Shown one piece after another: positions 38,197-46,786 of a stretch of DNA of 64,000 bases. The translations under genes and the position numbers were made by a program. The notes beneath the pieces are model-generated. The model was not told where the DNA came from. It was given only the letters and a program-made list of their open reading frames with translations, and did not search any database. The DNA is from Nitrospirales bacterium (lineage in GTDB: Bacteria > Nitrospirota > Nitrospiria > Nitrospirales > UBA8639). The stretch lies in assembly GCA_963422365.1 (NCBI GenBank), contig OY729426.1, positions 2,304,001 to 2,368,000 on the forward strand, given 5' to 3'. The first letter of the stretch is position 1, and each line of letters begins with the position of its first letter.

Positions 38197-39300
38197 TTAC
38201 ACGGTGGGCAAACCAGGTTGTTGTTGAGTCAGACAATGCAACGTCCCAAAGCCCCACACAAGATCGACCGCGTGAACCCCAATAACCGGGCGGTCGGGAA
38301 ATAATTCGCTCAAAATGCCCAGAGCCATTCGATCATTGGGATCATTAAAGGTTGGAACCAGGACAGCCGCATTCGCAATATAAAAATTGGCGTAACTCGC
38401 TGGAAGCCGTCGACCATCAAAGTACAGTGGGGCCGGCAGAGGCAATGGAATTACCTCGATTGTTGATCCATTTTCCAGTGTCGCGTTTTCTAAACGCTCT
38501 CGATTTTCAGCCAACACATGGTAATTGTCATCACCGCTGTTTCGTTCCTGACACAACACCACAGTCGTCGGATTCACAAAACGACACACATCATCCACAT
38601 GCCCATGGGTATCATCCCCGGCAATACCTTTGTTCAACCATATGACATTGGTGACGCCCAACGCGTCTTGTAAAACCGACTCATAGTCCGTAGACAGAAA
38701 TCCTGGATTGCGCACTTGAACATCACGATCAAGCAAACATTCTTCGGTGGTCAACCCAGTCCCAACCCCATTCACGTCAATGCTGCCCCCTTCCAAGACC
38801 ACCTTCTGCCCTTTGTGAAGAATGGGGAAGGAGCGACAGGCTAAGCGAGACGCGACTTTCACCGACACTCGATTGTCTTTTTTCCAATCAGCATAGCGGG
38901 CCCACGCGATAAATTGAAAACGTGTAATCGCCACTTCCGAAGTCGGCCGACCCCGCGTCACAAAAATCGGACCAAAGTCACGAGTCCAGCCACGATCCGT
39001 CGAAATCCGAAAAAACTCGATACTGGAGAGATTGGCTTCGGCCCGTGCCAAAACACTCCGCGCACGCTCTTCATGCGACTGGGAATGAACAAGAATCCGG
39101 ACCCGCTCTCCATCCGCCAACTTCCGAACAATCTCCCCATACACCCAATGAACGGCAGCCAGTTTTCCCGGCCAATCCGAGGCATTATGGGGCCACCCCA
39201 GCCAAGTTGCCTCATGCGGCTCCCATTCCGCCGGCATGCGGAACCCTAATTGCACAGGAGTCGACCGTAACGTGTTCCCTTGATGCGTCTCTTTTCCCAT
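38197..39300 (-). CDS. aguA: Agmatine deiminase
   Basis: RMPAEWEPH, WTRDFGP, LEGGSIDVNG, DDTHGHVDD, ASYANFY, GTLHCLTQQQP. Confidence 0.93.
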   Translation of the reverse strand: MGKETHQGNTLRSTPVQLGFRMPAEWEPHEATWLGWPHNASDWPGKLAAVHWVYGEIVRKLADGERVRILVHSQSHEERARSVLARAEANLSSIEFFRISTDRGWTRDFGPIFVTRGRPTSEVAITRFQFIAWARYADWKKDNRVSVKVASRLACRSFPILHKGQKVVLEGGSIDVNGVGTGLTTEECLLDRDVQVRNPGFLSTDYESVLQDALGVTNVIWLNKGIAGDDTHGHVDDVCRFVNPTTVVLCQERNSGDDNYHVLAENRERLENATLENGSTIEVIPLPLPAPLYFDGRRLPASYANFYIANAAVLVPTFNDPNDRMALGILSELFPDRPVIGVHAVDLVWGFGTLHCLTQQQPGLPTV

Positions 39301-39352
39301 TGAAGGAACAGATTGTCTCCCTGCAGCAATGGTTTCTCACTATGATATGAGA

Positions 39353-40092
39353 TCAAAGCTTAAGGACCAATGTGTTGTGATATGACATCGTCCGTGTAAA
39401 AGTTCTGCGTTCTAGCAGTCCATTAACCGCCGAGACCAAGCCGGGAAACCTGTTTGAATAATCGTCGAAAATCACGAGTGCGCCTTTCAGGAGTAGCGGA
39501 AAAAACAACTCAACATCTTTTTCAACTCCTTCCTTGGTATGATTTCCGTCAATAAACAGCATTCGAATCCCTTTGTGACCGATTTTCTTAGCTGCAAGCT
39601 CACTCGACATATCAAGAAGGTAGACCACTTTATCGAGACCAACGCGTTTCATATTATTTAAAAACGCTCTTTTCAGATCACTCAACTGTTCATTTTCTTT
39701 TACAACCGTTTCTTTCCTAAGATTTTCACCAAAATGATCAATAGCGTAAAACGTGCCGTTATTCGAATTCGCTCTACCGCTCGGCCCAAAAAACTCGTTG
39801 ACCGCCCTTGCCATGAACCAATTTCAACGACATCCCCTTGAAGCTCTTGCATGTAACATAACGTGTACAAAATTTCTCCTGATCGCGGCGCGACCATCCC
39901 CGGAATCAACAACGAAATCGATGCCAACATATCTAAATCTATGATTTTGCGATTTGGACTAAGATCACATACTGGTTCGATTATATTTTTGGCGCGAATG
40001 AGTCGAAACACTGATACCAAAGTATTTCGCTTTTTTTGTATTAACAGCCTCAGATTTCGTTTTAACGACTGTAGTATCAACCGCATATTCAT
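39353..40092 (-). pseudogene. Class I SAM-dependent methyltransferase (Methyltransf_24-like), frameshifted, AT-rich
   Basis: GDVVEIGSWQGRST in one frame, then YAIDHF...MLFIDGNH...IFDDY in another. Frameshift at about 39772. Confidence 0.85.
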
Positions 40093-40123
40093 ATTTTTCA
40101 CCCAAGGCATCATTTCAAACTGC

Positions 40124-41035
40124 CTAGCACTCGCCATCGTCGTCTTGGTCAAAGAAACGCTTCGTGAGGCCGCCATACGCATCAACTCGACGGTCGCGGA
40201 GAAAGGGCCAATGGCGCCGGACTTCTTCAACTCGGCTCATATTAATTTCAGCGAGGAGAATTTCTTCTTGATCAATCGACGCTTCGGTTAGGACAATACC
40301 AAAGGGGTCGCAAATGAACGAACTCCCCCAAAATTCGATGCCCTCTCCGCCTGCATCGGGTTTCTCATGGCCCACTCGATTCACAACAGCCACAAACACG
40401 CCGTTCGCAATCGCGTGACTACGTTGAATGGTCTGCCACGCGCCGCGTTGCGATTCACCGTCTTGGGCTTTTTCGGACGGATGCCATCCAATGGCCGTGG
40501 GGTAGAACAACATCTCAGCACCCTGAAGCGTCGTGAGCCGAGCGGCTTCAGGATACCATTGGTCCCAACATATGAGGGTGCCGATTTTACCCACACTCGT
40601 TTGAATCGCTTGAAAGCCTCTATCTCCCGGCGTGAAATAAAACTTCTCATAGTAGGCTGGATCATCAGGAATGTGCATCTTGCGATAGAGGCCGGCAACA
40701 GAGCCATCGCCGTCAAGCACCACAACCGAGTTGTGATACATCCCGGCGGTTCTGCGTTCGAAGATCGGAACCATAATCACAACGTTGTACTTTCTCGCAA
40801 CCTTGCCCAACGCTTCAGTCGACGGCCCAGGCACCGACTCCGCCAAATCACACCACGCCGGATCTTCTTGTTGACAAAAATACTGCGAACGAAACAGTTC
40901 CGGCAGACAGATGATCTTAGCCCCACGCCGTGCGGCTTCTTCGACTTTGGCAAGGGCAGAGACGAGATTCTCGTGAGGAACAGCCTCACAAGACATTTGG
41001 ACCAAGGCTATCGTCAGATTGTTTCCCAGATTCAT
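40124..41035 (-). CDS. aguB: Carbon-nitrogen hydrolase, probable N-carbamoylputrescine amidase
   Basis: ICLPELF, YRKMHIPDDPAYYEKFYFTPGD, LICWDQWYPEAAR, WPFLRDRR. Clustered with aguA. Confidence 0.9.
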   Translation of the reverse strand: MNLGNNLTIALVQMSCEAVPHENLVSALAKVEEAARRGAKIICLPELFRSQYFCQQEDPAWCDLAESVPGPSTEALGKVARKYNVVIMVPIFERRTAGMYHNSVVVLDGDGSVAGLYRKMHIPDDPAYYEKFYFTPGDRGFQAIQTSVGKIGTLICWDQWYPEAARLTTLQGAEMLFYPTAIGWHPSEKAQDGESQRGAWQTIQRSHAIANGVFVAVVNRVGHEKPDAGGEGIEFWGSSFICDPFGIVLTEASIDQEEILLAEINMSRVEEVRRHWPFLRDRRVDAYGGLTKRFFDQDDDGEC

Positions 41036-41047
41036 GAGAACAGCCCC

Positions 41048-42317
41048 TTATGATACTTGCATTTCTTTGGTTTCATTGTCCAACCAGTCGATTGCAGTTT
41101 TCTCGTCTTGTTCGATAGCCATTTCCACTCCTCGTTTGGCGCACTCCAGAAGGTGTTTGGATTGTTTGCGCAGGTTAAAGGATTCGATGACTTTTTGCTG
41201 GATTTGGGTTTGTTTTTCTTCTGACAAAATGGGAAGCACCGTTCCTTTGACTTGATCCGGTCGCCAATGAAGTATGACGGAACCGCCTACATCTCAGGTT
41301 ACCTGTTCCTTTGTCAATATTGAATTAAGCATCAACTTTAAATATTCGTTCTTGACCTTCTCGGTTTTGTTTTTTAATCGAAGGATTCCGCCTGATGGAA
41401 TCATTTTCCGTGGCAATTGATTTAAGTAATAGGCAATTCCAGGAGTTGCGTCCTTGCTGAAAAGGATTTCTCCTTTATTTGGTTGATGCTGCTTGATCTC
41501 TGCATACAGCGTTTCAGAAATGTATTTTTCTTCCGTGATCTCAAAGGGGCTTAGGTTGCTAACCCGAACAAACGGGATGCCCTCATCGAGATACTTATCC
41601 CTTCCGACTTCTATGCATTTTTCGACCGTAACGAGATTCCTTAGTGTATCCCAGCCAGCCGGATAGTTTTTGATGGCATGAACGATTTCTTCATATTTTG
41701 GCTGGAAATACTCGGCATCAAGACGTTCAGTCTGCTCGACATCTGAGTAGTTCTTGACGAAGGTTAGCCGATGTTTGAGGTGCAATTGGTTAAGCCGAGT
41801 TCGGAGAGGAGAATTGTTTGGGCTTCGGTGTACAAACTTTCTGACCTAACCAAAACATCCAGAGCAGTTTTGTAATGCTCTAAAACAATTTCCTGGAATT
41901 GAGAATCAGGGATATATGTTTTTATTTTCTTAACTTGCGTCAGTAGTAAATTCGGCTGAACACTACTGATTGTTAGCCTTTTTGTCTGTCCTTTACCGTA
42001 TTTACAGTTCAAGAAAATGGTTAAACTACGGTGAAATCTTGTTCGACACATTTATATTTTCGATAGCCTGTAATGCCCTCCCCAATATCTCCTACATTCA
42101 AATATGGAGTGCCGTTATCTATAAACTCAATTTGATTACAAAGAGAGTAAGCGACAAACCTGATAATAGAGTCACATATATTGCCGAGATATTCCCATTG
42201 GTTATTTGTGATTTTTATCTCCAAACTCAACAAGCCTTTCCTGAAATACTCAGCATCGAACCGGAACAGTTCATTATCAGTTTTAATTTCACTCAAACCC
42301 ACTATAGAGTACTGCAT
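41048..42317 (-). pseudogene. R-M specificity (HsdS-like) subunit, fragmented
   Basis: FRFDAEYF and RLDAEYFQPKY repeats (two TRDs), GIPFVRVSNL, GSVILHWRPDQV, KHLLECAKRGVEMAIE, spread over at least 4 frames. Confidence 0.85.
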
Positions 42318-42412
42318 TATTCAGCTTTTTCCTCTCTTTCTGTTATTTCCTCTCGACCTTTTCAGATAATCACAATGTCGGCTCCTCACAATATGAACAA
42401 ATAGGAGCTTGT

Positions 42413-44534
42413 TTATCTCCAAAAGCTCAGCTTTTCCTCTCTTGCCCACTTAATAAAAGCTTCGGCGATGCCATCAGGTAATGCACCATTGTGGTTATGA
42501 AGATCATGATCAACAATCAGATGACCGTTTCTGTCCAGCTTGTCTTGTCCATTTTCATTTTTGAGATAGACATAATCGCCGGAATTGTTTTTACCGCCTT
42601 TCTCTGAAACGGCAAAAAGATAGGGTAGTCGTTGACTTCGGGGCAAAGCGGCCCTTTTTCTGAATCCTCATTCCACTTTTGCACACATAGTACGCTGGTC
42701 TTGGTGCCGGTATGCGGTTTGAAGGTGTTGCCGTGCAAGCCGATCACCGCCAAAATGCGCCCGCGCTCGGCGATAAACTCCCGAATGTGTTTATCCGAGG
42801 TGTTGTTGAAGCGACCTTGCGGCAGCACGATGGCCATGCGTCCGCCGGGTTTCAGAAAATCCAGATTGCGTTCTATAAATAGAATATCCCGCCCAACCTT
42901 GTTTTGCGCCTTTTTCCTGTCCGCTTTGAAACCAAGTTCGTATTGATGCAGGATACGACTTTCCCTGATATCTCCTGCGAAAGGCGGATTGGCCATGAGT
43001 AAGTCAAACTGGAACTGCTTGTTTTCTCCTTTGTTCGCTCTGAGCTTTTCAAGTCGGGCAAAGCCATTGCCGTAGGTGTTGATCCATTTTCTGTCCTGTT
43101 CGGTTCTATTGCCCCAGCGGTTAAAATCCAGCGTGTTCAAATGCAGCACATTGGTTTCCCCGTCTCCGGCAATCAGGTTCAGGGTTCGGGCCACCCTGAC
43201 CGTCTTTTCATCAAAGTCGATACCGAATACCTTCAGGGCATTCTGTTTGTCGCCCTCCGGGATTTCTTCATTGGTGAACAGATAGCCTGTCAGTTTGAAA
43301 ATGGTATGCACCGGAAATCCGCAACTGCCTGATGCCGTATCAATCATATATTCGCCCCGTTTGGGATTCAGCATTTGTACGCACATATCGATGACATGAC
43401 GCGGCGTGAAATATTGCCCTTTTTCGCCTTTGGCGGATTTGTTGACCAGATATTCAAAGGCTTTGTCCACCACCAGCAGATTGGAGTTGAACAACTTCAC
43501 GTCCTGCAAACTGGAAACACAGACGGCAAGATGGCTGTCGGATAGCTCAAAGGTTGCGCTTTCGGGGAACACGCCGCTCCATTGGTTTCTGGCCCGGTTG
43601 AACAAATCCTGGATTTTGTTTTTCAGCTCGGTGTCGGTCTGTCCGGTGCTCCGAAATTCCATGACGCGAAAGCCTTCATCGTCAATACCGCTGACCGCTG
43701 TTTTCACTGTTGCATAGTCTGACCCATCAATATAGCTAGGAGGAAGGGGATTACAAGTCGGTGGCGGTTCATGTACGGATGTTTTTGTCACTTGCTTCAG
43801 CAAGTAATTGATGATGCCCTTGTCCGGCTGGCTCTGGTATTCGTCATACAGCTTGGTGAATATGAGCTTGAACACCTCCTCGAATACATCTACCCCGGCA
43901 TTGGCCAGCACTTCGTCCTCCATTTCCAGAATGATGTCTTTCAGGGACTTTCTCTCATTGGCGAGTTTGTCCTTGACAACCAAATCTTTCAGGGTCAAGC
44001 GTTCGCTGAGTATGTCCTTGAGTGCTTGCGTTGCCTTAGGGACGCGGTGATGTCTTCACAATAGTTCGGGTCTTTGCGGTGGTAATGGGAAATCTTCTCA
44101 CCGTTTGTCCATGCACCGATGGGTGCGCCGGTGGCGTTGCAATAGGAACGAAGCTGGGCCTTGCCGTCTTTCAGCCTGGGCTTTTTTAACTCAACAATGA
44201 CATAGGCGGTGTCGGAGCGGTCCTTGTCGAAGATAACGATATCCGCTTTTTTCTTTTCCCGGCCAAAATTGACGGAATATTCAAATGCCAGCCGGTTCTC
44301 TGTATAACCGTACTCCTTCATAAGTCGCGCAGCATAAAGCTGACGGACGATTTCTTCCGGTTTGAGCTAGATTTCCCTGTCCCGAACAACGCAGGTCACA
44401 AAAGCGGTTTCCTTGCCTCTGATGGTTTTGGTGAAGATTTTTCCCCGTAAGGATGCAATTTCATCATCCGAGAACAGGGTGAGATGATCATTGCTGTCTT
44501 TGAGTATCGACTGGATCATATCCGGTTGTGTCAT
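42413..44534 (-). pseudogene. Fused HsdR-N-like nuclease / N6-adenine methyltransferase (Type IIB/IIG-like RM subunit), disrupted
   Basis: Start ATG 44534. In-frame TAG at 44367-44369 before KPEEIVRQLY. ADIVIF..IVELKK; KGQYFTPRHV, DTASGSCGF, ANPPFAG. Frameshifts near 44040 and 42620. Confidence 0.88.
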
Positions 44535-44587
44535 CTACGATCCGTTCCGTTTTGCGCGGCTTGCATGCCAGTATGGTTGGTTTGCAA

Positions 44588-44666
44588 AGATAACACTTCC
44601 AATAAACGGCTCAGAGCACGAGCCTGGGGGTGACTGCAGGAGACAAATTTAATTGCTTTGTTACGC
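44588..44666 (-). mobile_element. Integron attC recombination site (79 bp)
   Basis: Minus strand reads GCGTAAC-AAAGCAAT-T-AAA-...GGCTC-GTGCTCT-GAGCC-G-TTT-ATTGGAAGT-GTTATCT. AAC and GTT boxes, L arms CAAT(T)AAA / TTTATTG with one unpaired base, and the upstream gene's stop TAA inside the R'' box. Confidence 0.72.
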
Positions 44667-45290
44667 GTTTTCTGCTGCTGTGCGTCCATAACTAATTGCC
44701 AACGTTCTTTGACTGCTAGATAAAGCAGGACATATGATTTGGACGTGATCTGTTGTCATGCTTGCTCAGTCCTTCTTGTACTTATCTTTCGTCAGACTAA
44801 TCTTAAAGAAAGAAGGGCTGTGATCTATTCCGTTGAAGGAAAGACGCCAGAACACAACACAAGCCAATTGGGGATTTCAATGTTTATTCCTTAAGTAAAA
44901 ATCTAATGCATTGCTCAATATATTATTGTCTTCACTTACGGCAAGTGCTCTCAGAGCCTTGATGCATGAGTCGAGACGCATTTTTTCTCAATCTCATTAA
45001 GTTTTTTCTGAGAACTCTTCGCATCCAGCAGTATCCCGTTTTCGAAAACTTGAACCTGAAATTTTAAAATGCAGCTTGAGCCAAGCAGAAGGCAACGGTT
45101 TGTACGCCTATTTTTAATCTCAAAGTGATACCTAAGCTGCTCTTGACCGTATAGTTTGCAATCTTCAGTGGCTACCCCATAGTCCTCAACAGTTTCTGTG
45201 CAATCCCATTCTTTCAATGCCTCGGGCAGAGACCCTGCAATAGAAAGAGGCAATATATTTTCAGCTACTCTTTGCGGAGATGTCTTCTGC
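44661..45290 (-). pseudogene. AT-rich hypothetical cassette gene, decayed
   Basis: RBS AAGGAGAGG without an intact ATG. Reconstructed KTSPQRVAENILPLSIAGSLPEALKEW...QLRYHFEIKN...GSSCILKF...VVFWRL..IDHSPSFFKI...LAISYGRTAAENA*, with two internal TGA and two frameshifts. Confidence 0.7.
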
Positions 45291-45412
45291 CGCCTCTCCT
45301 TTTATTTGAGTTGAGGTATTGCGTCGGCCATGTCTAGCGGTTGCTATACCGGCCTAGCAGCAGTACCCAAGAACATGCTGAACGTCATGAACGGTTGATG
45401 ACAAAGAGGCCA

Positions 45413-46786
45413 TTACGAAGCAGGCTGATCCAGGAAAAGAGAAGACGGTTCAGGAGAAAGCAGAGCGGCAGGTTCTTCGGCCGCAAGCATGGTAAGAGTC
45501 ATGCCAGCCAAGGCCTCACGGACGGCTTGATCCCGTTGGCGCAGAAGCGATCCAACGGGATCGTTGCCTTCCTGCACCATCTCAGTTGGCGTAAATTCTT
45601 TATGCGCGACGAGTTGAAGTACTTCCAGCACGGTAATCTGTTCCGGTGGTCGTCCCAATGCCATTCCTTTGGGTTCGGCTGTTCGATGAATCAGACCGTG
45701 GTCAACGAAATTTTCGACAAGAGCTTCCAGCGCAGAAAGAGGTACGCCTAATTTCGTCGCCAATTGTTGCATCTGATAGGGTGGCGCACCAGCCATATAT
45801 TGGCGCGTGATGTAGACCAGCAGGGTCAGGGCCAAACGTTCTCGGAAGGCAGCGGTGCGTTGTTTCCATCGGAGGCGAGTCAGATAGGCGGTCGGATGCT
45901 GATGATAGTAGGCGACTTGCGCGCCGACTAAGACTATAAGCCAACCGATGTAGAGCCAGATGAGGAACAGAATCAGAATGGCAAAACTGGAATAGACGGC
46001 ACTATATCGCGTCGCTCCTGCGACAAAAGATGCAAACAGCACCCCAACGATTTTCCATAATATTCCGCCTGTCACTCCCCCTACTAAGGCTGATGCGAAG
46101 CGCACTTGAGTATGAGGAACGAACTTGTACAAGAACGTAAAACCAAGACAAATCAGCATAAACGGCATGAGGGCCGTCATCCAGAGGACGGCGATTCCCA
46201 CGGGCTCGATTTTTAATATGGTTTGCACGAGCCAGTGGCTCTGTGCCGAGGCGATGCTGGCAACAGCCGTGAAGACCAGCACGGGTCCCACCAAGACCAC
46301 ACTCAAATAGTCGGTAAATTTTCTTGTCAGAGGTCGCGCATCGCGCACTCGCCAGATATGATTGAGAGCTTCTTCGATTTTGTCGATCAGTGAAAACGTG
46401 GTATAAAATAATCCCGCCAGCCCAACTGCCCCTAAAGCACCCACTTTGAGGTTGTTGACGAATTCAACAATATGACCGGCAATTTCCGAGCCTTTTCCCC
46501 CCAACGGTTCCAGACCTTGAACAAGCAGCGGTTCGAGGTGTTGGTGCACGCCAAAGGCTTTCAGCACGGAAAACGTCACGGCCAGGAAGGGAACGAGTGA
46601 CAGCAACGTGGTCGAGACAAGACCCGTCGCTCGTATACTGAGAACGCCATCACGAAAATCCGAGACCGCCACTACGACCAACCGCAGAGGCTTGACATAA
46701 AAAGCTGTCAAGCCCTTGAGTGTTCCCGAGTCCTGAACCCACAAATCCCGACGAAAAAATTTCTCGGTTCGACCCAAGACGTTCAC
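45413..46786 (-). CDS. YihY/BrkB family membrane protein with C-terminal Rrf2-like winged helix
   Basis: TTLLSLVPFLAV, IEEALNHIWRV, LYKFVPHTQV, YSAVYSSFA...WLYIGWLIVLVGAQ; C-terminal LGRPPEQITVLEVL. Confidence 0.9.
   Translation of the reverse strand: MNVLGRTEKFFRRDLWVQDSGTLKGLTAFYVKPLRLVVVAVSDFRDGVLSIRATGLVSTTLLSLVPFLAVTFSVLKAFGVHQHLEPLLVQGLEPLGGKGSEIAGHIVEFVNNLKVGALGAVGLAGLFYTTFSLIDKIEEALNHIWRVRDARPLTRKFTDYLSVVLVGPVLVFTAVASIASAQSHWLVQTILKIEPVGIAVLWMTALMPFMLICLGFTFLYKFVPHTQVRFASALVGGVTGGILWKIVGVLFASFVAGATRYSAVYSSFAILILFLIWLYIGWLIVLVGAQVAYYHQHPTAYLTRLRWKQRTAAFRERLALTLLVYITRQYMAGAPPYQMQQLATKLGVPLSALEALVENFVDHGLIHRTAEPKGMALGRPPEQITVLEVLQLVAHKEFTPTEMVQEGNDPVGSLLRQRDQAVREALAGMTLTMLAAEEPAALLSPEPSSLFLDQPAS

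Follow-up and report, generated by a model that had tools for sequence, protein, structure and literature searches.

Can a single integron gene cassette be found in a genome that has no integron, and if so, how did it get there? The question is raised by a minus-strand segment of the window, that is, the whole 64,000-nt stretch of DNA analyzed here, for which the original prediction proposed a solitary cassette with a classical attC site, no integrase, and a possible role in defense. The same prediction assigned the DNA to a probable Nitrospirota genome, and the named relatives of its YihY protein indeed come from Nitrospirales and Nitrospirota MAGs. Comparison with congeneric genomes and with homologous loci leads us to consider segment 44594–45298 (minus strand) quite probably a solitary integron gene cassette that is dead and was likely put there by an integron integrase (IntI) supplied from outside the genome.

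A probable relic attC site behind a broken gene

attC sites carry inverse cores at their ends, R'' with the consensus RYYYAAC and R' with the consensus GTTRRRY, 55–140 nt apart, and their bottom strand forms a stable hairpin in which the R and L boxes pair and extrahelical bases protrude. The candidate relic attC at 44588–44666 (minus strand), composed of R'', L'', a variable part, L', and R', was characterized by constrained folding, by a match to our attC model R3, and by its likeness to an intact attC of locus L064. It opens with R'' GCGTAAC at 44666–44660, followed by AAAGCAAT, T, and AAA, and its 3' half consists of TTT, ATTGGAAGT, and R' GTTATCT at 44594–44588. The boxes are CAAT-T-AAA for L'' and TTTATTG for L', and a GGCTC/GAGCC stem at 44624–44608 lies in the variable part; together with a T-rich tail, this stem was flagged as terminator-like by a simple terminator scan. 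All motifs named in the original prediction, namely, GCGTAAC with its stop codon, AAA, GGCTC/GAGCC, TTT, GTTATCT, and, at the other end of the segment, GCTAGGC and GCTAGAC, are present where it placed them. The two cores stand 79 nt apart; their AAC and GTT triplets are exact, with one departure from the consensus at the degenerate positions of R'' and two at those of R'.

When pairing of AAC with GTT is forced, the site forms an R helix and, beyond an unpaired spacer, an L helix of 4 bp, which is followed by a single bulged T and another three pairs. The same topology is obtained under forced pairing for the intact attC of a homologous metagenomic cassette, L064:3125–3193, ACGTAACAAGGCAATTAATTTG...AAATTATTGCGGCGTTATCT, which shares with the window site the '' arm and the TTATTG of the L' box. 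The L''/L' boxes and the bulged T that match this attC stand 50–60 nt beyond the gene end. The identity of R' GTTATCT in the two sites is partly a coincidence, since TTATCT belongs to the flank. Thus, the classical geometry claimed for the site holds under forced pairing, as it does in L064, but the hairpin is no stabler than those of shuffled sequences: the constrained fold has −5.6 kcal/mol (z −0.33) as against −14.7 kcal/mol (z −4.5) for L064, and the free fold is at the shuffle level on both strands (z 0.05 and 0.17) and leaves R''/R' unpaired. Folding of the bottom strand, proposed as a check on the prediction, gave the described geometry under forced pairing and no stable hairpin.

A comparison was also made with home-made attC covariance models, R1, R2, and R3, which were constructed over three rounds and seeded with six sites of an array in genome G054 (locus L055) and four sites behind genes of the family discussed below (A3); the G054 array adjoins an integron-integrase gene, and R1 finds ten attCs there, including the six seeds. 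R3 was built from 46 sites, with the window site and its closest look-alikes, L064 and L066, left out. Base pairs were assigned from a column-pair count, and later site sets were aligned with Infernal; RNAalifold applied to a MAFFT alignment of mixed-length attCs yielded no structure, and in another MAFFT alignment the right arms were wrongly positioned. attC finders requiring strict cores, or R boxes complementary at 6/7 positions, missed known sites and were dropped, and a later heuristic worked in part.

With filters off, the best R3 hit in the 64-kb window covers exactly 44588–44666 on the minus strand and spans the full model (positions 1–59), its score being 15.5 bits with E 0.2, which is roughly calibrated and non-significant alone; the held-out controls L064 and L066 score 25.8 and 20.7 bits, respectively. 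The covariance-model scan on which the prediction was to be judged thus pointed precisely to the expected place in R3, at a weak score, and yielded nothing in R2. The negative results for this site with R1 and R2 (the latter at E ≤ 10) say little, because with default filters both models also missed the intact attCs of L006, L007, and L064. Given the weak score and a fold no better than shuffles, we read the site at 44588–44666 as a predicted attC in decay, one that has kept its position, register, boxes, and likeness to an intact relative and has lost its stem. As such, it is an example of how a cassette relic fades, the attC stem being lost when the R and L boxes can still be read.

In place of the single ORF expected, there are four collinear segments of 100, 34, 33, and 32 aa between yihY and the methyltransferase gene of a restriction–modification (R–M) system, and no intact ORF is found on the minus strand between yihY and this fused HSDR_N_2/N6-methyltransferase gene. 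Homolog matches and nucleotide alignment identify the region at 44661–45286 (minus strand) as a pseudogene of a family of approximately 209 aa with a CxxC..H..C motif. An intact family protein matches the window in two frames, with residues 2–104 at 77% and residues 96–208 at 67% identity. According to the nucleotide alignment with six homologs, the start codon has changed from ATG to AAG at 45286–45284, one nucleotide has been deleted just before an A run at about 44985–44991, 5' of ATGCG at 44981–44977, and two Leu codons have become in-frame TGA codons at 44879–44877 and 44768–44766. The degenerate Cys motif noticed earlier is confirmed as well: CELC has become CKLY, and Tyr thus stands for the second Cys of the invariant C-x2-C (CxxC to CxxY). 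The native stop codon TAA is retained at 44663–44661, inside R''. The lost start, the frameshift, the two TGA codons, and the Tyr in place of an invariant Cys make the window gene a pseudogene. Recoding of TGA is ruled out, as the adjoining long genes are normal under translation table 11 and the frameshift and the lost start would remain. Nothing in the window cassette is predicted to work today.

The gene family as an integron cassette elsewhere

The first ORF piece matches 99 proteins, mostly of 207–216 aa, at 44–77% identity. They span many phyla, with members in Shewanella, Vibrio, Marinobacter, Pectobacterium, Sulfuricurvum, Phycisphaerae, Novosphingobium, and many metagenomes, and residues C44, C47, H55, and C73 are invariant in 27 aligned members. 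The family has no match in Pfam or NCBIfam and nothing beyond noise in PADLOC; phrog_27072 matches weakly, and in the zinc-motif region only. An AlphaFold2 model made from the 27-sequence alignment is confident (pLDDT 93) and predicts an N-terminal beta domain with the Cys/His motif and a helical C-terminal half. Foldseek found nothing in PDB at E ≤ 0.001 for this predicted fold, a wide VIA-align search gave no clear solved-structure match (best Z 4.7), and ESM Atlas returned unnamed clusters only. One metagenomic protein, P0087 (524 aa), is a fused form with about 310 additional N-terminal residues before a complete domain of this family.

In homologous loci, the stop codon lies within ...TAAC and is followed by a hairpin-forming site that ends in GTTR..., e.g., an attC occurs directly 3' of the stop codon in L006, L007, L064, L066, L078, and others. 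Applied with default filters to 83 non-redundant homolog loci, R3 yields 44 hits at E ≤ 0.5, all co-oriented with the gene. An attC stands directly beside the family gene in at least 17 of the 83 loci (default-filter hits together with filters-off hits for L064 and L066); this count and those derived from it are minimum values, as some known sites, too, escaped detection under default filters, and part of it arises by construction, since many of the counted sites belong to the R3 training set. The homolog contexts thus contradict one of the outcomes named in advance as refuting, namely, that such genes are never flanked by attC. Downstream attCs were found in 14 of these 17 loci and upstream ones in 11, eight loci having both. 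Ten of the downstream sites start 5 nt before the end of the stop codon (offset −5, with the stop in R''), i.e., in the same register as in the window, and the 11 upstream sites end 15–22 nt before the family start codon. About 66 of the 83 loci have no adjacent attC by R3 under default filters.

Independent signs of cassette status are provided by co-oriented, evenly spaced arrays in L078 (seven sites) and L064 (three sites), the homologous intact cassette L064:2480–3187 being 708 nt long. Not all copies stand in arrays: no intI was retrieved at E ≤ 1e-30 from the Shewanella indica genome to which L007 belongs, and the Arsukibacterium gene is located far from the ends of a contig of 209 kb, the two integrase hits falling on contigs numbered 21 and 23. 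In Vibrio anguillarum, the copy sits on a 678-nt contig of a genome with intI. Taken together, the ~209-aa gene is a true integron cassette elsewhere.

Among the first 150 of 215 neighboring ORFs that were scanned, defense and mobile-element genes are abundant around intact family members. The defense-type neighbors are SAVED-2TM, OLD/AAA_15 with UvrD (Gabija-like), KwaB, Mrr, PLD, and a type I R subunit; the others include ArdA, toxin–antitoxin parts, and transposases. In five loci (L008, L065, L067, L072, and L074), a Peptidase_M78 (IrrE/ImmA-like) gene stands just upstream of the family gene, and the two may form a conserved operon outside the integron context. A PIN_2 gene is sometimes found after this upstream gene. 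By association, these neighbors suggest a possible defense role for intact members. They are reasonable candidates for a phage-defense screen, the family moving both as an integron cassette and in defense islands, and the present case draws attention to a widespread, well-conserved, unnamed family with a confident predicted fold.

One slot in a decaying R–M island

The absence of intI from the window, noted in the original prediction, extends to the whole genome and to the genus. A search of the 2.50-Mb single-contig genome with TIGR02249 retrieved two Xer-like genes only, at 84 and 69 bits with the cut-off being 265, and none of the 38 genomes of the genus has an integron integrase at E ≤ 1e-25. 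In the phylum, 68 out of 301 sampled genomes score above the integrase cut-off, one hit being from a different genus of the same family. Nor is there a second attC in the window, where R3 with filters off finds nothing else better than E 2. The expected related attC sites did not appear in the genome either: no array was found, the whole-genome R3 pass gave nothing at E ≤ 10 with 150 of 1454 candidates scored, and a heuristic fold scan retrieved ten scattered attC-like sites that form no cluster. The fold scan also revealed an identical 87-nt near-palindrome present twice outside the window, 3.7 kb apart (G000:C1:2099188–2099274 and 2102887–2102973). Rfam at gathering thresholds finds one tRNA only in the window, confirmed as tRNA-Leu.

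The limits of the cassette were set by comparison with congeners. DNA specific to the window genome, here termed cassette A (44594–45298, minus strand, 704–705 nt), lies between two flanks that are common to the window, G033, and G042. The right flank (44535–44593, minus strand) starts with the TTATCT of R' (TTAGAT... in G033), is shared with both genomes, and ends at the start codon of the R–M gene. The left flank, or island leader (45299–45367, minus strand), is shared with G042 and holds GCTAGGC (45358–45352) and GCTAGAC (45338–45332). These two motifs had been taken for the 5' boundary of the cassette and for degenerate cores; neither reading is supported, as the motifs lie in shared DNA and the specific DNA starts at about 45298, and one-mismatch versions of GTTRRRY occur 1549 times in the window vs. 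1604 ± 33 times in shuffled sequences.

In BLASTN alignments, homology to G033 reaches window position 44594, the G of GTTATCT, and homology to G042 begins at 45299; hence, the window-specific DNA is 44595–45298, or 705 nt with the G. At the right junction, G033 has GTTAGAT followed by TCGCAAACCAAC and the window has GTTATCT followed by TTGCAAACCAAC, with homologous flank beyond. The specific stretch is thus one cassette long (cf. 708 nt in L064), its right end being the G|TT of R'. This is a natural case from Nitrospirales in which congeners place that end of the cassette at the crossover point. A gene cassette is bounded by G|TT at both ends; the left junction here, at about 45298/45299, has no recognizable G|TT core and stands 12 nt before the start-equivalent codon, as compared with the 15–22 nt seen for upstream attCs of homologs; either about 10 nt have been lost or the join is non-canonical. 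Region 45287–45372 has no significant likeness to the empty-site intergenic DNA of G001, G008, G010, and G013, nor to the upstream regions of 92 homolog loci (best score 22, 95th percentile of the null 25). Between the cassette and the island end beside yihY, there are 69 nt only.

In G033 and G042, the same flanks enclose 1.27 kb with an intact gene for a DUF4062 protein of 330 aa. The gene, termed cassette B, occupies L148:2392–3384 in G033 and is also present in L147 (G042) and L035 (G017), the G017 copy being disrupted by IS elements. In G033 and G042, its stop codon TAA lies within GATTAAC, and the 83-nt span that begins there ends in GTTAGAT or GTTGTAC; R3 does not detect these 3' sites, and their fold is at the chance level. 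A DUF4062 homolog in G283 is flanked by attC hits of 58.9 and 49.1 bits, with an intI-like gene containing one in-frame TAA 7.6 kb off on the same contig, and attC hits also adjoin homologs in G258 and G292. Full-length DUF4062 homologs are thus attC-flanked in other Nitrospirota. As cassette B shares the slot and has attC-flanked homologs, two unrelated cassette-family genes alternate at one point; no genome has both. This sharing of a slot fits the proposed spread of cassettes outside integrons. It is possible, if doubtful, that unrelated cassettes (the 209-aa gene here, the DUF4062 gene in three congeners) have been exchanged in this integrase-less genus at one constant capture site, namely, a core of the GTTAGAT type in the leader of a mobile R–M island. 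If so, this site would be a natural, polymorphic attG-like hotspot, through which cassettes seed defense islands in lineages that never had an integron.

The whole island (41040–45402) fills the gap between yihY (45413–46786, with BrkB and Rrf2 domains) and an N-carbamoylputrescine-amidase-like CN_hydrolase gene (40124–41035). The gap is 4363 nt in the window vs. 73–111 nt in G001, G008, G010, and G013, from which the island is absent; the yihY gene of G001 is 94% identical to that of the window. Besides the cassette, the island contains a broken fused HSDR_N_2 and N6-methyltransferase gene, a type I-like M gene (42416–44534, minus strand; identified with Pfam, PADLOC, and tblastn), and fragments of a specificity (HsdS-like) gene (41048–42317, minus strand). 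The M gene matches PADLOC MTase_I with E 1e-188 and, according to tblastn, is spread over three frames, with an in-frame TAG at 44369–44367 and two frameshifts; the copy in G033 is intact (702 aa). The R–M module has no attC and is present at 72–82% identity in ten out of 37 congeners, there without the window cassette. It is not a cassette, and it is dead as well. Two parts of the original prediction are thereby left unsupported: that the cassette delivered the defense genes, and that a working defense factor is encoded here, the cassette gene being a pseudogene and the R–M genes also broken. The decay extends over the whole island rather than the cassette only.

Other islands occupy the same gap in related genomes. 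In G002, G003, and G007 (loci L032, L036, and L033, respectively), it holds AbiE-like genes, namely, an AbiEi-like gene and a nucleotidyltransferase gene, and a PD-Lambda-4-like gene encoding a 1359-aa HTH_37 protein that matches PADLOC PD-Lambda-4_A with E 1e-38; in G017, it contains IS elements. The yihY/CN_hydrolase gap is a defense-island hotspot in the genus. A second insertion, low in GC (about 41%), separates the agmatine deiminase gene from the CN_hydrolase gene at 39265–40123; it contains a Methyltransf_24 ORF (39353–39814) and an unnamed 176-aa ORF and is present in G001 and absent from G008, G002, G010, G017, G003, and G013.

Origin of the cassette and comparison with known systems

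In the scenario that we favor, a circular cassette with a folded bottom-strand attC would have been recombined by IntI supplied in trans, the target being a G|TT site in double-stranded genomic DNA, within the R–M island leader. Afterwards, without integrase and selection, the gene, the attC stem, and the adjoining R–M genes would have decayed. Insertion in trans at a genomic G|TT is favored because the right end lies at the crossover point and the 69 nt to the island edge leave no room for intI or attI. Since the closest relative, G001, has no island, the whole island probably also came by homologous recombination at the hotspot, which is compatible both with insertion in trans and with derivation from an array.

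The latter is the main alternative: the slot may be a remnant of an ancestral resident integron or small array (e.g., cassette B followed by cassette A) that lost its integrase, different species having kept different cassettes after integrase-mediated excisions. Such a history would agree with two different cassette-family genes in one slot with shared flanks, with the equal decay of all three attC-like sites of the genus, which suggests age, and with the frequency of integrases in the phylum, including the hit in another genus of the same family. However, cassettes A and B are never seen together in any genome, a search reading through stops found no intI fragment in 38 genomes, the window has no second attC, and an integrase gene or attI would have to fit into the 69 nt beside yihY; we hold this history to be unlikely. 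Lower still do we rate the view that no integron was ever involved, the gene having come in a defense island by ordinary horizontal transfer and homologous recombination and the "attC" being a terminator-like hairpin with AAC and GTT occurring by chance. The gap is indeed a hotspot of unrelated islands (AbiE-like and PD-Lambda-4-like genes, IS elements, R–M), GGCTC...GAGCC with its T-rich tail does resemble a terminator and the fold is at the chance level, and about 66 of the 83 homolog loci are without an adjacent attC (R3, default filters). On the other side, the best model hit of the window is exactly this site, in the family register, its L''/L' boxes and bulged T agree with those of the L064 attC, the window-specific DNA is one cassette long with its end at G|TT, and the slot takes a second cassette-family gene elsewhere in the genus; we regard this view as highly improbable.

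Finally, the cassette could be alive, its promoterless gene being expressed from upstream as a new defense factor acting with the R–M system. Intact members often stand among defense genes, and the family shows high conservation and a fold predicted with confidence, but the lost start, the frameshift, the two nonsense codons, and the loss of the invariant Cys, along with broken R–M genes and family matches at the noise level in PADLOC, make this scarcely credible; at the level of sequence, it is already contradicted.

The insertion of a cassette from outside, preferred here, has a described counterpart. A preprint reports SALINs and an experimental demonstration of IntI-mediated insertion at genomic GWT (attG) sites (bioRxiv 10.1101/2022.09.11.507474), and gives 3400 SALINs in 2469 out of 21,105 genomes (bioRxiv 10.1101/2022.09.11.507474). 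The window element resembles SALINs in having one gene and one attC, with no other attC in the window, no array in the genome, and no integron integrase in the replicon, and in a right junction where G|TT gives way to genomic DNA, the outcome to be expected from IntI recombination with a double-stranded G-W-T. It differs from them in the decay of both the gene and the attC, in the non-canonical left junction, and in the location of the slot inside a variable R–M island, where three congeners have a different cassette; moreover, SALINs are a class defined by IntegronFinder, whereas the window case was assigned with home-made models.

The cassettes of sedentary chromosomal integrons and CALINs (L064, L078, and L055 of G054) share with the window a promoterless ORF of a ~0.7-kb cassette with R'' overlapping the stop codon, and an attC that shows the R and L boxes and has a bulged base in its '' arm. 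In contrast to them, the window has no array, attI, Pc, or integrase, and its attC has z −0.33 vs. −4.5 in L064. It contains neither the intI, adjacent attI, and cassette array of a complete integron nor the two or more clustered integrase-free attCs of a CALIN, there being one candidate site in the island. It does have the promoterless ORF directly followed by attC that makes a gene cassette, with homologs acting as cassettes in arrays. The integrase-less solitary cassette of the original prediction is thus borne out by a gene with an attC that takes the stop codon into R'', by attC-flanked homologs, and by the lack of any other attC in the window or array in the genome.

Integron cassettes encoding anti-phage defense have been described in a preprint (bioRxiv 10.1101/2024.07.02.601686). 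Both families found in the slot occur among defense genes or in integron arrays elsewhere, as do those cassettes; the window copy differs in being dead, and the link of the 209-aa family to defense is a candidate one only. As SALINs are already described and common, the locus adds no new principle: the window element is a decayed, non-functional SALIN and an ordinary member of this known kind.
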